A DNA stretch of 64,000 bases from Patescibacteria group bacterium (GTDB lineage: Bacteria > Patescibacteriota > Kazan-3B-28): contig JAQUNP010000002.1 in NCBI GenBank assembly GCA_028717565.1, positions 90,054-154,053 of the forward strand, in the 5' to 3' direction. Shown in pieces: positions 3,401 to 31,091 of the stretch (its first letter is position 1; every line of letters begins with the position of its first letter). A program made the translations under genes and the position numbers. Under the pieces are notes generated by a model. It worked only from the letters and a program-made list of their open reading frames with translations. It was not told where the DNA came from and did not search any database.

Positions 3401-4432
3401 ATGGAAGAGGCCTTTTTACAAACATCTCTACTGCGTGTCTTTATTTTGGCGGCGATTGGGTTTTTTGTCGCAATGTTGGCCACACCGTTTTGGGCCAACT
3501 TTTTGTATAAGTACAAATTTTGGAAACAAGCGAAAACCGAGACCATAGACGGTCGTCAGGCCACAGTTTTTCAGAAACTGCATGCAGAAAAACACAAGCG
3601 CAATATTCCCACCATGGCCGGAGTGTTATTTTGGGTCTTGGTGGTTGTTATTTCGCTACAGTTTAATCTGACTCGCAGTCAAACCTATCTACCGATTTTT
3701 TCTTTGGCGAGCGTGGGGATTTTGGGGGCGGTTGATGATTGGTTCAATATTCGAGGTATAGGTGGCATCAAGGGGATTAGAGCGCGGCACAAGATGTGGT
3801 GGCTGTTTGTCATTGCGGCCGTGGGGGCGTGGTGGTTTTATTTCAAGTTGGAGCAGAACTCATTTCATCTGCCGGGGGTAGGTGATTTCTTTGTGGGCTG
3901 GTGGTACATACCTATTTTTATTTTTGTCATCTTGGCCACGACCAATGCTTTTAATATCACAGATGGGCTGGATGGGCTTTCGGGAGGACTGTTTACCATT
4001 GCCTTTGGTTCTTATGGTGTTTTGGCTTTGGCCAACAATCAGGTCTCTTTGGCCATATTTTGCGCTACCATCGTCGGAGTGTTGTTGGCATACCTGTGGT
4101 TTAATATTTTTCCAGCTCGGTTCTTTGGTGGCGATACTTATTCGTTGGCCTTTGGGGCTACGTTGGGTGTGGTGGCTATGTTGATTCCCAATGGAGTGGG
4201 GTTAGCGGTTTTGCCACTGGTGGCTTTTGTCCCCTTGGTGGAGACCTTGTCGGTGATTTTGCAACTAACCTACCGGAAGATCTGTAAACGTAAACTGTTT
4301 TTGGTGGCGCCAATTCATCATCATTTTGAAGCCATTGGTTGGCCGGAAACTAAAGTGACCTCACGGTTTTGGATTATCGGAATGGTATTTGCAGTGGTCG
4401 GCATTGTGGTCGGAATGCTCGGCGCAGGATAA
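3401..4432 (+). CDS. mraY: Phospho-N-acetylmuramoyl-pentapeptide transferase
   Basis: Polytopic membrane protein with the MraY signatures NAFNITDGLDGL and APIHHHFE. dcw context. Confidence 0.95.
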   Translation: MEEAFLQTSLLRVFILAAIGFFVAMLATPFWANFLYKYKFWKQAKTETIDGRQATVFQKLHAEKHKRNIPTMAGVLFWVLVVVISLQFNLTRSQTYLPIFSLASVGILGAVDDWFNIRGIGGIKGIRARHKMWWLFVIAAVGAWWFYFKLEQNSFHLPGVGDFFVGWWYIPIFIFVILATTNAFNITDGLDGLSGGLFTIAFGSYGVLALANNQVSLAIFCATIVGVLLAYLWFNIFPARFFGGDTYSLAFGATLGVVAMLIPNGVGLAVLPLVAFVPLVETLSVILQLTYRKICKRKLFLVAPIHHHFEAIGWPETKVTSRFWIIGMVFAVVGIVVGMLGAG

Positions 4433-4840: not shown

Positions 4841-4886
4841 AACTCAACGGCTCTCCGCCAGCCGGCGGATTTTGAGCCGTTGAGTT
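4841..4886 (+). terminator. Hairpin-family terminator variant with a nested GC-rich hairpin in its loop
   Basis: AACTCAACGGCTC...GAGCCGTTGAGTT stem enclosing TCCGCC-AGCC-GGCGGA. T-rich 3' side. Confidence 0.7.
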
Positions 4887-8181: not shown

Positions 8182-8667
8182 ATGAGGTATGTATTTTGGG
8201 CTCTGGGGCTCGTAATACTGATCTTGTTGGCGAATTGGACTTATCAAACTTTTACGTCCAACGATGAAATGGATGCAAATACTGCTCAGGTGGAGGTCTT
8301 TTTCAACGAAAATCAACCCACTGATATTGTGCAAGTGGGAGTGGAAAGAACAGTGCCGGCTACTAGCAACGTGGAAGATTTAGCCGAGGCGGCGATGCGT
8401 GAACTTTTGGGTGGGCCGACGGATAAGGAGGCGGAACAAGGCCTAACTACGGCTATTGCTGACGGTACTCATTTAAACTACGTTAACATAGTGGATGGTG
8501 TGGCCACAGTGGATTTCAATGAGGCCTTTGATTTTCAAATAGGTGGTTCGGCTAGGGTAATGGCCATCAGTCAGCAGGTGCAAAAAACCCTGACGCAGTT
8601 TACGGGTGTGAATGACGTAAGGATTACGATCAACCATGGTGCACGTGAGGCGGTGCTGGAACCGTAA
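8182..8667 (+). CDS. GerMN-domain lipoprotein or secreted protein
   Basis: GAGAGGAGG RBS and an N-terminal TM anchor. GerMN-like blocks LLGGPTDKEAEQGLTTAI and DGVATVDF. Confidence 0.65.
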   Translation: MRYVFWALGLVILILLANWTYQTFTSNDEMDANTAQVEVFFNENQPTDIVQVGVERTVPATSNVEDLAEAAMRELLGGPTDKEAEQGLTTAIADGTHLNYVNIVDGVATVDFNEAFDFQIGGSARVMAISQQVQKTLTQFTGVNDVRITINHGAREAVLEP

Positions 8668-8774
8668 CCAGAGGTATGTCGGAGAAGTCCCAACCTACTT
8701 ATAAGAGAAACAACCCAAGGGGTGCCGTGGGTTGTTAGATGTCGCGAACCAGTAGTGGGTTTTTGGTGGGTAAA

Positions 8775-29357: not shown

Positions 29358-29422
29358 AATTAGATATTTAGATTATCGTCTAAATAATAATGTAAAAAAT
29401 TTTGGTTGTCAAATAGTTTAAA

Positions 29423-29451
29423 ATCAACGGCTCAAAATATGAGCCATTGAT
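29423..29451. terminator. Hairpin-family element (ATCAACGGCTCA-AAATA-TGAGCCATTGAT)
   Basis: 12-bp stem with one G-U pair. Same family as 16021, 41992, 42579 and 55274. Confidence 0.7.
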
Positions 29452-29524
29452 TCCCCCCGCATTTATTGCCCCTGCGAATCATTTAGAGTATCGTGGGGTA
29501 TTGATATAATCTAGATGTTGTCAG

Positions 29525-29559
29525 TGGGGCGTAGTTCCGGTGGACCGGAACAAGGCAAC
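29525..29559 (+). repeat. tRNA-Gln 5' fragment copy 1, interrupted by a hairpin
   Basis: TGGGGCGTAG + TTCCGG-TGGA-CCGGAA + CAAGGCAAC matches tRNA positions 1-10 and the D-arm 3' side of the intact gene at 29683. Confidence 0.75.
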
Positions 29560-29581
29560 CCGAAGGGAGTGTGACAAAGAG

Positions 29582-29633
29582 TGGGGCGTAGCCCCTGGCC
29601 GCGTCCCGCGTCCTGCGGGCAGGCAAGTGGCAA
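29582..29633 (+). repeat. tRNA-Gln 5' fragment copy 2, interrupted by a ~30-nt GC-rich hairpin
   Basis: TGGGGCGTAGCC + CCTGGCCGCGTCCCGCGTCCTGCGGGCAGG + CAAGTGGCAA. Confidence 0.75.
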
Positions 29634-29682
29634 AATTAAATCATTCTGGTAGTAAAGAAAAGTTAGATATCGTTACAAGTAT

Positions 29683-29756
29683 TGGGGCGTAGCCAAGTGG
29701 CAAGGCAACGGGTTTTGGTCCCGTGATCGTAGGTTCGAATCCTGCCGCCCCAGCCA
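29683..29756 (+). tRNA. tRNA-Gln (anticodon UUG), CCA encoded
   Basis: Hand-folded cloverleaf. Acceptor TGGGGCG/CGCCCCA with the U1-A72 pair typical of bacterial tRNA-Gln. Anticodon stem ACGGG/CCCGT with loop TTTTGGT. T-arm GTAGG-TTCGAAT-CCTGC. Discriminator G plus CCA. Confidence 0.93.
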
Positions 29757-29764
29757 GAAGGAAG

Positions 29765-29795
29765 CTCGGATTTTCATCCGAGGTTTCTTCTATTT
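29765..29795 (+). terminator. Terminator after tRNA-Gln
   Basis: CTCGGA-TTTTCA-TCCGAG followed by GTTTCTTCTATTT. Confidence 0.6.
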
Positions 29796-29879
29796 GGGCG
29801 TCGACGATTAGAACGTCCGCAGGGGTTCGCATACGATGTCCCGGTTGAACCGGGACGAGTGGGGGGACCCGCATCGTAG

Positions 29880-31091
29880 ATGTGGGAAACCTTCATTGCC
29901 GCCCCAGCCAAGAAAAAAGCAGGAGCTGGTTATAATGAGCTTGACCGGGAGCTGTTATTTAAATATTGTGAAGAGATCACGGGGGACGGTGATGTTCCCT
30001 TGATAAGGAGGTGTCTTACGGCTAAGGGTAAATTGAGAGTAAACCGTGCTCTAGCACGGCGCGTTTTTGACGCATTACTGGCGGCGCTAGAGCAAAAAGC
30101 ATTCCCTTATAATTTCGCTCAAGTTCCGCATCTGGATGAAAACTTCCCGAAAGGGATGACACTAGGTGGGGTGGAGGAGGCCCGGTTTTTGTTTGTTGTT
30201 TGCCTGTGGATGCGGGGAGGGATAAAAAGCACCACAGCATTTAAGCAGCTAGCGAGGGTATGGGAGGCGAGGGCGAACATTTTTGACCCGAGGTATGTGG
30301 CTGCACGCAAAAATTCGAAGAAGCTGGTGCGGGAGATTTCCGAGCTGCTGCAAGCGTGCGGTTTGAAATACAGGTCGGGCATGGCGTATGCGCCATATGA
30401 ATGGGTGTCCAACCTAACCAAGCTAGAATATTATTGGCACGGAGATCCGCGGCAGCTCTTTTACGGAGAAGGTGCAACCTGGGAAGATGCGTATGCTCGT
30501 ATCATTTCCACATATTCAGGCAACGGTGGCAAATTCGACCCCGATTCACCCAATGGGTTTTTGGGGTTTCGGGAAAAAATGGCCAGTATGCTGGGGTTCT
30601 TCTTGGCCGATCGGGGATTGCTCGATAGCGAGTCCTTTCCCATTCCGGTGGACTTCCACGTGATGCGAGTAATAGTGGAGTGTGGGATTATCGAGCTGCC
30701 GGATAGCTGGACGGGCTATGAATCGGACTGGAGACAGCTAGCTCAGCTGATTCGGGGGTTGACCCAGCAATACTGCGAAAAAGAAGAGCGTGACTGGAGA
30801 CGCTTAGGAGACGCCTTATGGTTGTTGTCGGGGAATGTGTGTAATCTCTACCCAGGCAATACCAGTGTGGTCGGCGAATATAACGCGCGCCAAACCTCGG
30901 TGGACTCTCGGGAGCTTATGTGGACTCCGATGCTGTCGATTAAATACTGGCAAACCTGTGGCCAGTGTCCGATAGAGCAGTTTTGCAAGCATTGTGTTCC
31001 GTCAGCTCTGTATTATCGGCAAGGCCGATTGGACATTAGGGGTAAGCACACTAAACCCCAGGGGCTCTTTTCTGAAATCGACGCCGGATAG
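29880..31091 (+). CDS. HhH-GPD-superfamily DNA glycosylase-like protein with a C-terminal Cys cluster
   Basis: GFREKMASMLGFFLADRGLL...PIPVDFHVMRV resembles the EndoIII/MutY HhH plus VDTHVxRV block. C-terminal CGQCPIEQFCKHC looks like a FeS-cluster loop. GC-rich. Start is uncertain (no clear SD). Confidence 0.5.
   Translation: MWETFIAAPAKKKAGAGYNELDRELLFKYCEEITGDGDVPLIRRCLTAKGKLRVNRALARRVFDALLAALEQKAFPYNFAQVPHLDENFPKGMTLGGVEEARFLFVVCLWMRGGIKSTTAFKQLARVWEARANIFDPRYVAARKNSKKLVREISELLQACGLKYRSGMAYAPYEWVSNLTKLEYYWHGDPRQLFYGEGATWEDAYARIISTYSGNGGKFDPDSPNGFLGFREKMASMLGFFLADRGLLDSESFPIPVDFHVMRVIVECGIIELPDSWTGYESDWRQLAQLIRGLTQQYCEKEERDWRRLGDALWLLSGNVCNLYPGNTSVVGEYNARQTSVDSRELMWTPMLSIKYWQTCGQCPIEQFCKHCVPSALYYRQGRLDIRGKHTKPQGLFSEIDAG
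29897..29910 (+). repeat. 14-nt direct repeat of the tRNA-Gln 3' end (att-like)
   Basis: TGCCGCCCCAGCCA is identical to 29743-29756. It lies inside the first codons of the ORF at 29880. Confidence 0.7.

Follow-up and report, generated by a model that had tools for sequence, protein, structure and literature searches.

Displaced tRNA-Gln fragments in a Patescibacteria genome: probable marks of a tRNA-targeting GIY-YIG cassette and a mobile hairpin of about 30 nt

The stretch of DNA analyzed here, referred to as the window, comprises 64,000 nucleotides (nt) of a Patescibacteria group bacterium (contig JAQUNP010000002.1) and contains one tRNA gene, a tRNA-Gln(UUG), identified by both ARAGORN and Rfam. 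Upstream of this gene lie two broken copies of its 5′ end, here termed copy 1 and copy 2, each interrupted by a GC-rich hairpin, and downstream of it lies a degenerate copy of its 3′ part (Table 1). The locus has probably been battered by two types of selfish DNA, both common among Patescibacteria, namely a cassette that encodes a small GIY-YIG nuclease and targets tRNA genes, and a mobile hairpin of about 30 nt.

The first 10 nt of tRNA-Gln, TGGGGCGTAG, occur exactly and on the plus strand at 29525, 29582 and 29683, and nowhere else in the 64 kb, as had been stated in an earlier note on this DNA, which was also accurate in how it described the continuation of the first two occurrences. Copy 1 is composed of tRNA positions 1–10 (29525–29534), the palindrome GTTCCGG-TGGA-CCGGAAC (29534–29551) and an exact CAAGGCAAC (29551–29559), which corresponds to the 3′ side of the D-arm (positions 19–27). 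Copy 2 is composed of TGGGGCGTAGCC (positions 1–12), a GC-rich insert of 30 nt, CCTGGCCGCGTCCCGCGTCCTGCGGGCAGG (29594–29623), and the D-loop sequence CAAGTGGCAA (positions 12–21, 29624–29633), which amounts to a clean net insertion of 31 nt relative to the intact gene with the C of position 12 duplicated. The two pieces do originate from the 5′ end of the gene, but they are not the tRNA halves for which they had been taken, as they represent its first 21–27 nt. The fragment on the other side of the gene retains two exact blocks, ATCGTAG (positions 44–50, at 29873–29879) and the 14-mer TGCCGCCCCAGCCA (positions 61–74, at 29897–29910), together with an anticodon-arm-like GGGGGGACCCG and an altered T-arm.

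A lone match of 9 or 10 nt is not rare in a sequence of this size, as about 37 nine-mer matches to the tRNA are expected per 64 kb on both strands, and TGGGGCGTAG with one mismatch allowed is about as frequent in the window as expected by chance. The similarity extends beyond the 10-mer, however, as each copy contains a second exact and colinear block. When the tRNA was aligned to the segments by gapped local alignment, none of 2000 shuffles (mean ∼13, standard deviation 2.4) attained the score of copy 1, of copy 2 (28.5) or of the 3′ fragment, and two adjacent control segments were non-significant. All three are real leftover pieces of a tRNA-Gln gene. The region is not an assembly artefact, because an independent Logan contig (L001) is identical to the window over 29358–29714, ending inside the tRNA. 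The next Logan contig begins at 29729, which places the break between the two within the tRNA gene, and this break was probably caused not by misassembly but by a second genome in the sample with the same tRNA sequence.

Copies 1 and 2 are not functional tRNAs, as ARAGORN and Rfam call the intact gene only, nor do they belong to a known structured RNA, an outcome that the earlier note had allowed for. In Rfam runs at gathering and permissive thresholds, only tRNAs exceeded the Rfam 15 thresholds at this locus and at 12 related loci, and the matches below threshold were noise. A sigma-70-like site ends 15 nt 5′ of copy 1 and probably drives a transcript that includes the fragments as well as the tRNA. 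The TATAATCTAGATGT box is also present 5′ of the single fragment in the orthologous locus L091.

Table 1. Features at and near the tRNA-Gln locus, with one related hairpin elsewhere in the window
Feature	Position	Strand	Evidence or comment
Promoter-like site TTTAGA-17-TATAAT	29482..29510	+	10/12 consensus matches, TG extension
Copy 1	29525..29559	+	Palindrome replaces D-loop; alignment score 27.3
22-nt spacer between copy 1 and copy 2	29560..29581	+	Last 11 nt resemble the 11 nt 5′ of the intact tRNA
Copy 2, left part	29582..29593	+	tRNA positions 1–12, exact
Family-A hairpin element in the D-loop of copy 2	29594..29623	+	30-nt core
Copy 2, right part	29624..29633	+	tRNA positions 12–21 (CAAGTGGCAA), exact; copy ends there
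49-nt spacer, likely relic of the nuclease cassette	29634..29682	+	Putative 5′ untranslated region remnant and last ∼15 codons
Intact tRNA-Gln(UUG), CCA encoded	29683..29756	+	Rfam tRNA, 62.5 bits
Terminator-like hairpin 3′ of the tRNA	29765..29782	+	–
GC-rich perfect hairpin GTCCCGGTTGAACCGGGAC between tRNA and 3′ fragment	29838..29856	.	Inverted repeat I8; no clear family
Degenerate tRNA-Gln 3′ fragment	29860..29910	+	Repeat D3; alignment score 33.8
16-nt hairpin TCCGCCAGCCGGCGGA, family C	4854..4869	.	Nested in the loop of terminator 4841–4886

The insert of copy 2 belongs to a dispersed family of small hairpins, designated family A, with the form CCTGGCCGCGTCCCGCG-nnn-GCGGGCAGG, which appears to be mobile. 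A scan of Joint Genome Institute (JGI) metagenomes for CCTGGCCGCGTCCCGCG-N(0-25)-GCGGGCAGG yielded 77 copies on 75 contigs, representing 70 distinct contexts, and almost all of them have a 29-nt core with a variable loop of 3 nt. The net insertion is 30 nt, or 31 nt in the window where the loop is one base longer, and the window copy is matched by nhmmer with E = 4.6e-6. The arms, CCTGGCCGC and GCGGGCAGG, pair with a single G.G mismatch (approximately −10 to −12 kcal/mol as DNA). No further copy was found in the 64-kb window by mismatch search, regular expression or nhmmer, and there were no matches in the viral contigs of IMG/VR. The flanks are highly constrained, as the preceding base (−1) is C in 68 of the 70 non-redundant copies and the following base (+1) is C in 66. 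Wherever an uninterrupted tRNA is available for comparison (the window, L091, L023 and L085), a single C is duplicated; no transposase was identified.

Family-A hairpins are found in coding regions as well as in the loops of tRNA fragments and of other palindromic repeats or terminators. A perfect host stem of at least 7 bp encloses 7% of the insertions compared to 1% of random positions. Within tRNA fragments the site is either the D-loop after position 12 or the anticodon loop, as GGTTC[el]CTGGTCC (el, the element), and nearly every displaced Gln or Glu fragment carries a hairpin at position 12/13. The family-A hairpin is in the tRNA sense orientation in every tRNA-fragment context inspected, and its strand bias relative to local GC skew is weak (35 vs 20, p = 0.06). 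Together, the C…C flanks, the enrichment in loops and the constant sense orientation in these fragments point to an insertion process that is aware of structure or strand. Removal of the hairpin in silico restored a tRNA in none of the 77 contexts, and hence the hairpin-bearing tRNA pieces are all dead fragments, several of which have an intact tRNA, mostly tRNA-Gln, within 400 nt.

All six reading frames of the hairpin are free of stop codons, and on the contigs that carry it the surrounding open reading frame (ORF) is often open in the same frame on both sides. On L045, L056, L090, L089, L071 and L064, in-frame inserts of 10 residues are present in Fpg, PheT, TsaD, PrmC, MiaB and TyrRS, and the Pfam domains of PheT, Fpg and TsaD extend across the insert. 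In the Fpg of L045 the 10 residues PGRVPRPRAG are missing exactly from the eight closest homologues (72–85% identity), and Fpg homologues have a second site with related inserts ending in ..SLRAG (corresponding to ..CCTGCGGGCAGG). A length of exactly 10 codons with no stop in any frame would account for the persistence of family A in protein genes. In its unrelated contexts, its presence/absence polymorphism and its in-frame persistence within genes, family A behaves as a dispersed palindromic element.

The hairpin of copy 1 is a different matter. It folds at −7.1 kcal/mol as DNA (z = −3.4), and a search of the fetched contigs for a corresponding dispersed family (TTCCGG-N4-CCGGAA) gave two loose matches only, about the number expected by chance. 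It looks like the D-arm itself turned into a perfect palindrome, TTCCGGT-GG-ACCGGAA, by a local event. The earlier suggestion that structured loops are invaded by a very small hairpin element therefore holds for the insert of copy 2 but not for the hairpin of copy 1. Similarly, a GC-rich hairpin is indeed nested in the loop of a terminator far upstream in the window, as had been noted, but it is not of the same kind as the insert of copy 2 and represents a separate 16-nt family, family C (TCCGCCAGC[CT]GGCGGA), whose palindrome (loop AGCT or AGCC) occurs in unrelated contexts in L030/L042, L045, L075 and L080. A third family of 31 nt, CCCCAGTAGTAGAGC.AAGCTCACTACGGGG, shows compensatory changes in its stem and is present in L019 (∼4349–4379), where it lies in the D-loop of a tRNA fragment, in L021 (∼2278–2308), where it lies in the loop of another palindrome, and in L004 (∼2272–2304).

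Loci with the same architecture were found in related organisms. A scan of genomes for the first 27 nt of the tRNA led to one other Patescibacteria genome, L019, which has a like layout and a near-identical GC-rich sequence 5′ of its tRNA-Gln(CUG). L004 has a quite different tRNA-Gln, and its fragment consists of TGCGGGATCGTC, identical to positions 1–12 of its own tRNA, followed by CCTGGCCG…GGGCGAGG and CTAAcGGC, ending 15 nt before the gene. Since the fragment in L004 copies this divergent tRNA, the fragment co-varies with the tRNA of each genome, with the insert at the same place. In L022, L024, L036 and L041 the order is a 5′ fragment with one or two hairpins, an ORF of ∼86 residues with a GIY-YIG signature and an intact tRNA-Gln, the ORF ending a few bases from the start of the tRNA or having its stop codon inside it. 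Seven of the 13 GIY-YIG ORFs on the fetched contigs have a tRNA on the same strand within −15 to +23 nt (four Gln, and one each of Ser, His and Pro), and for Gln, Ser and Pro the ORF is preceded by a displaced 5′ fragment, as it is for tRNA-Glu in L096.

Many of these small ORFs have no stop codon of their own (L036, L041, L043, L095, L096 and L104). They end at the TAG of tRNA positions 8–10 or at a TAA or TAG in the D-loop, and their last three to seven residues are encoded by the tRNA. A profile search retrieved 3728 homologues at E ≤ 1e-8, of about 80–90 residues and with the domain PF01541, the named ones being mostly from Patescibacteria, and 54 of the best 120 have C-termini of types encoded by tRNA 5′ ends. 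Four such classes were confirmed in the DNA, namely ..GEVA for tRNA-Ser (L043 and L104), ..SGVV or ..CRVV for tRNA-Gln (L036 and L041), ..ALSSNG for tRNA-Glu (L096) and ..WGVAKW for a tRNA-Gln of the window type (P0186), each followed directly by the stop. Two further ORFs, P0111 and P0155, picked solely as top matches occurring on many contigs, are located directly 5′ of tRNA-Ser(GGA), and each is itself preceded by a displaced fragment and by a double hairpin that is conserved. Hence the ORFs abut genes for tRNA-Gln, Glu, Ser, Pro and His, and there are both ORF-free loci (the window and L091) and an occupied one (L095), which are of the same tRNA type but do not form a strictly orthologous pair with identical flanks.

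The occupied locus, L095, provides the closest counterpart to the window. Its first fragment, GGGGCGTAGCC[element]CAAGCGGTAAG, is followed by a spacer of ∼125 nt and by a second fragment, TGGGGCGTAGCC[element with nested insert]CAAGTGGTAAGGCAA, both fragments carrying the element after position 12. After aatcatt comes the ATG of an ORF of 85 residues (P0186, PF01541), which overlaps an intact tRNA-Gln(UUG) near-identical to that of the window such that its last codons, WGVAKW and the stop, are the first 21 nt of the tRNA. An alignment of the window, L095 and L091 is colinear throughout, with the ORF missing from the window and from L091. The 49-nt spacer of the window (29634–29682) begins with AAATCATT, which matches the 5′ untranslated region of L095, and continues with GGTAGTAAAGAAAAG, compared to GGTAGCAAAGAAAAA at the 3′ end of the L095 ORF. 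The frame of the spacer that stops at the TAG within the tRNA reads ..SGSKEKLDIVTSIGA, and the peptide SGSKEKLDIVTSI corresponds to KGSKEKLDIIDSI in the homologue P0215. When P0215 was compared by phmmer with the six-frame peptides of the window, this peptide was the top match (E = 0.11), and profiles align it weakly to the C-terminal YKGxKEKxxII motif (i-E 16 and 2.9). Because this match is combined with the expected position, the right frame and colinearity of the DNA, the GIY-YIG ORF was likely deleted from the window locus, with the spacer as its relic. Elsewhere in the window, a GIY-YIG-like peptide on the minus strand (8574–8774, E about 0.01–0.04) overlaps the 3′ end of a plus-strand ORF and was rejected as a probable chance match.

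ORF-less loci with a fragment, a short spacer and a tRNA were also found in L091, L004, L019, L023, L065 and L085. L091 shares the promoter box and an upstream terminator-like hairpin with the window and is therefore regarded as the orthologous locus; it has one fragment with the same element at the same position. Two stacked fragments are present in the window, L095 and L065. In L065 (minus strand) the outermost fragment, GGGGACGCC[element], lies ∼80 nt upstream of the second and resembles the tRNA-Gln of L019, whereas the intact gene begins with TCCCGGATCGTC…, and L019 and L065 have the same upstream gene for a 105-residue membrane protein, which suggests that the resident tRNA-Gln allele of L065 has been replaced. 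In the window, 29571–29593 and 29672–29694 (repeat D2) are 83% identical over 23 nt, and this weakly suggests that copy 2 once headed an intact tRNA that was preceded by a cassette ORF. Among controls from outside the Patescibacteria, a 5′ fragment precedes the gene at one alone of 12 tRNA-Gln loci that share its first 27 nt. This is L013 (1309–1482; Gaiellaceae, Actinobacteria), where a 5′ half of tRNA-Gln (positions 1–34) is followed by a 30-nt palindrome and lies 65 nt 5′ of an intact tRNA-Gln with a different D-loop.

These arrangements lead to the following proposal. A cassette with a nuclease of ∼85 residues would insert into a tRNA gene and bring with it its own version of the tRNA 5′ part. 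When a tRNA gene that lacks the cassette is broken, an occupied allele would act as the template for repair, with tRNA sequence serving as portable homology arms, and the repair would copy in both the ORF and the replacement 5′ part. The original 5′ part would stay beside the promoter but be displaced upstream as a dead fragment, and the rebuilt tRNA would lie directly 3′ of the nuclease ORF, which often stops inside it. Because the rebuilt gene is still present as a target, the site could be invaded again and fragments would stack, copy 1 being the older scar and copy 2 the younger one. In the present genome the nuclease ORF would later have been deleted, leaving the 49-nt relic between copy 2 and the tRNA. 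The ∼30-nt hairpin would insert beside a C (roughly between YC and W), with a preference for the loops of tRNA fragments and other hairpins. The fragments would most likely be leader sequence without a function, transcribed together with the tRNA and cut off by RNase P. What is observed directly comprises the sequence relationships, the intact ORF at the corresponding place in L095, the recurrent architecture and, for the hairpin, its dispersal and its presence/absence polymorphism, while we infer nuclease-driven homing by way of tRNA homology arms, the order of events, the loss of the ORF and the movement of the hairpin. Of the two possibilities raised in the earlier note, serial rearrangement at a tRNA hotspot and a small hairpin element, both find support together, because the hairpin family is dispersed and the stacked fragments match a recurrent architecture exemplified by L095. 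As for the agent at the hotspot, it appears to be a GIY-YIG cassette rather than an element of the integrase type.

Several observations weigh against this proposal. The contigs fetched were chosen by way of the hairpin or the nuclease, so that the frequencies given above are biased. No GIY-YIG gene or pseudogene was found in the 64-kb window, the relic peptide is short and of marginal significance window-wide, and the query P0215 was chosen after the fact. The spacers of the other ORF-less loci contain no detectable ORF relic, and at those loci fragments could have formed without a cassette. Copy 1 is missing from the orthologous L091, which under the serial order requires a loss there. The junction between cassette and fragment ranges over tRNA positions ∼14 to ∼52, and insertion is therefore not precisely site-specific, although such variation fits recombination tracts with later deletions better than it does precise transposition. 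In addition, the protein of ∼85 residues corresponds to the catalytic domain alone with no obvious domain for DNA recognition, the intact tRNA target outlasts the insertion, unlike with classical homing endonucleases, and the downstream 3′ fragment is outside the reach of the cassette model.

The pieces could instead have arisen on the spot, through slippage during replication or partial tandem duplication at the 5′ end of the tRNA, perhaps provoked or favoured by selection after a hairpin had inserted into a tRNA gene present in one copy, with no cassette at this locus. The many ORF-less loci, their lack of a detectable ORF relic and the resemblance of the copy 1 palindrome to a template-switch product are all in line with this, yet L095, with the same tRNA type and two-fragment layout, has an intact ORF where the window has its spacer, the spacer aligns to both ends of the L095 ORF region with a relic peptide in the right frame and place, and ORF-bearing versions exist at five tRNA identities. 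Slippage is thus considered unlikely. Somewhat less probable still is a functional leader of the tRNA-Gln precursor, a tRNA-mimicking decoy or an element for processing or stability that is under selection. The promoter-like site 5′ of copy 1 would indeed have the pieces co-transcribed, the first 12 nt match the local tRNA in several divergent genomes, and the 282-nt locus is more stably folded than its shuffled versions (z = −3.9), the hairpin insert being paired with the pseudo-acceptor strands. On the other hand, most of the folding signal is owed to the tRNA and the terminator, no Rfam family matches, the pieces vary among relatives in number, length and order, the hairpin is a generic dispersed insertion that is also present inside coding genes, and in relatives a protein-coding ORF occupies the would-be leader.

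An origin as attachment (att) site remnants, left by integrase-mediated integration and excision of a phage or island at a tRNA-Gln hotspot, has little to recommend it, even though integration at tRNA genes is classical, an exact 14-nt copy of the tRNA end lies in a 3′ fragment 140 nt downstream, and the GC content rises from ∼46–48% to ∼51–53% after position 30000. Integrase elements typically duplicate the 3′ part of a tRNA, and the duplicate marks the distal boundary of an island of kilobase size in which the integrase is encoded. The arrangement here resembles an att site in having a partial tRNA copy beside an intact gene, but the upstream pieces are 5′ parts that lie directly upstream, within 160 nt of the gene and with no element between, the copy at 29897–29910 is the only additional one of the tRNA 3′ end in the 64 kb, no integrase was found among the neighbouring genes checked, and in relatives it is a GIY-YIG ORF rather than an integrase that separates fragment and tRNA. 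Chance similarity of short GC-rich words, although single 9–10-mers are common and one-mismatch forms of TGGGGCGTAG occur about as expected, is hardly credible given three exact copies within 160 nt on one strand, each with its second colinear exact block, alignment scores that no shuffle reached and the same architecture in other genomes.

If the cassette and the hairpin are taken as the preferred explanation, a further step would be to regard them as a single two-part system, in which the tRNA-homing cassette is autonomous and the hairpin is a non-autonomous element spread into single-stranded loops, and in frame into genes, by the enzyme or by the breaks that it makes. This is doubtful. Were it true, the system would be a new kind of GIY-YIG-driven mini-transposon that shapes tRNA loci and proteins across Patescibacteria, and it could exchange resident tRNA alleles for foreign ones.

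Parts of this picture have precedents. The phage T4 nuclease SegB reportedly cleaves within the tRNA gene region. It likewise is a small GIY-YIG nuclease encoded beside or among tRNA genes and inherited together with them, the GIY-YIG genes of the phage tRNA cluster being treated in a T4 review and a paper on SegB (PMC2988022, PMC13096335). In contrast to SegB, the ORF described here, which is known from sequence, is chromosomal in Patescibacteria, has ∼85 residues that are close to the catalytic domain alone, and abuts or overlaps the 5′ end of the tRNA with a displaced, duplicated 5′ fragment. Mobile GIY-YIG ORFs in fungal mitochondria, as in atp6 of Allomyces, carry a replacement gene end and leave the native end behind as a pseudogene. 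There, too, the element restores the gene that it interrupts and the native part remains dead, but at the loci studied here, which are those of bacteria, it is a tRNA gene that is targeted, and at its 5′ part, instead of a protein gene at its 3′ end, and the fragments stack serially and are riddled with hairpin insertions.

Like the Rickettsia palindromic elements (RPEs), family A is dispersed, hairpin-forming and non-coding and is found in frame in protein genes as well as in RNA genes; repetitive extragenic palindromic (REP) sequences, bacterial interspersed mosaic elements (BIMEs) and the GC clusters of yeast mitochondria are likewise small dispersed palindromic repeats. Compared to RPEs (100–150 nt), family A is much shorter, ∼30 nt or 10 codons, with six open frames, C…C flanks and enrichment in the loops of tRNA fragments. 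REP elements mobilized by REP-associated tyrosine transposases (RAYTs, IS200/IS605-like) have a conserved 5′ tetranucleotide of the GTAG type. The flanks of family A show C only, at −1 and +1, and no RAYT-like transposase was identified, no search having been directed at RAYTs. In the Candidate Phyla Radiation (CPR), rRNA genes contain insertion sequences at the tops or bases of stem-loops, some of which encode GIY-YIG proteins and which are not introns, and many of them are short and lack an ORF (PMC11270868). These have in common with the present elements the phylum and the stem-loop sites in genes for structured RNAs, but that study covers rRNA with no mention of tRNA and describes neither a 30-nt element nor the cassette (PMC11270868). 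In the literature consulted, whose coverage was incomplete, the family-A motif was not found and no RPE-like element or tRNA-targeting GIY-YIG cassette was reported for CPR. Apparently, both selfish elements are widespread and previously undescribed.

Patescibacteria have tiny genomes that are usually described as streamlined. That a selfish cassette would strike their single-copy tRNA genes again and again, rebuilding the gene each time, and that essential proteins (PheT, TsaD, Fpg and PrmC) have acquired exact 10-residue insertions through the spread of a 30-nt hairpin, is therefore of some significance, and the window reveals both types of element even though it holds a relic only. If confirmed, these elements would account for odd tRNA pseudo-fragments and for puzzling short inserts in the proteins of CPR bacteria, and a comparable origin is conceivable in principle for some of the contig breaks at tRNA genes. 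They would also provide a route for the horizontal replacement of tRNA alleles, as indicated by L065, in which the oldest fragment is of a different tRNA-Gln type, and the small nuclease might be of biotechnological interest. There would be a warning for annotation as well, as such elements can produce, as by-products, ORFs that continue into a tRNA gene and N-terminal extensions like the one of ORF 29880.

The latter ORF (29880–31091, 403 residues) has an annotated start that is overlapped by the downstream 3′ fragment. It is identical to PHR51_02610, and one member of its family carries PF09171 (AGOG glycosylase). As its closest homologue aligns from residue 49 onward only, its first ∼47 codons probably do not truly encode protein. 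The ORF was of limited use for synteny, since its homologues in L003 and L006 are not beside a tRNA-Gln and L004 alone had one nearby. Repeats of the tRNA 3′ end are found 93–246 nt downstream of eight of the 29 tRNAs on the fetched contigs, a biased sample. In L023, L065 and L048, and partly in L084, a conserved, structured-looking sequence of ∼150 nt, ggggtcggggaaacgggagtttccccg…aaccgcaagg…gaggggtgaggtagccc.a.ccccgac, is located ∼50–230 nt 3′ of tRNA-Glu, Gln, Asn or Gly, with an inverted T-arm copy before it and a direct copy of the tRNA 3′ end after it. It has no Rfam match even at a permissive threshold, and the interval between the tRNA and the 3′ fragment in the window has no similarity to it.

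The genes neighbouring the locus encode CysRS, an SdpI/ArsR pair (minus strand), a patatin-like protein and a DUF5671 protein. The intergenic region between ArsR and the tRNA contains a palindrome, ATTTAGATTATCGTCTAAAT, at 29366–29385, with a near-copy at 29481–29494 that overlaps the −35 region of the tRNA promoter, and this palindrome may be the operator of the divergent ArsR/SdpR-like repressor. Over the window as a whole, GC skew is positive in every 2-kb bin (0.08–0.29), and nearly all of the long ORFs are on the plus strand.

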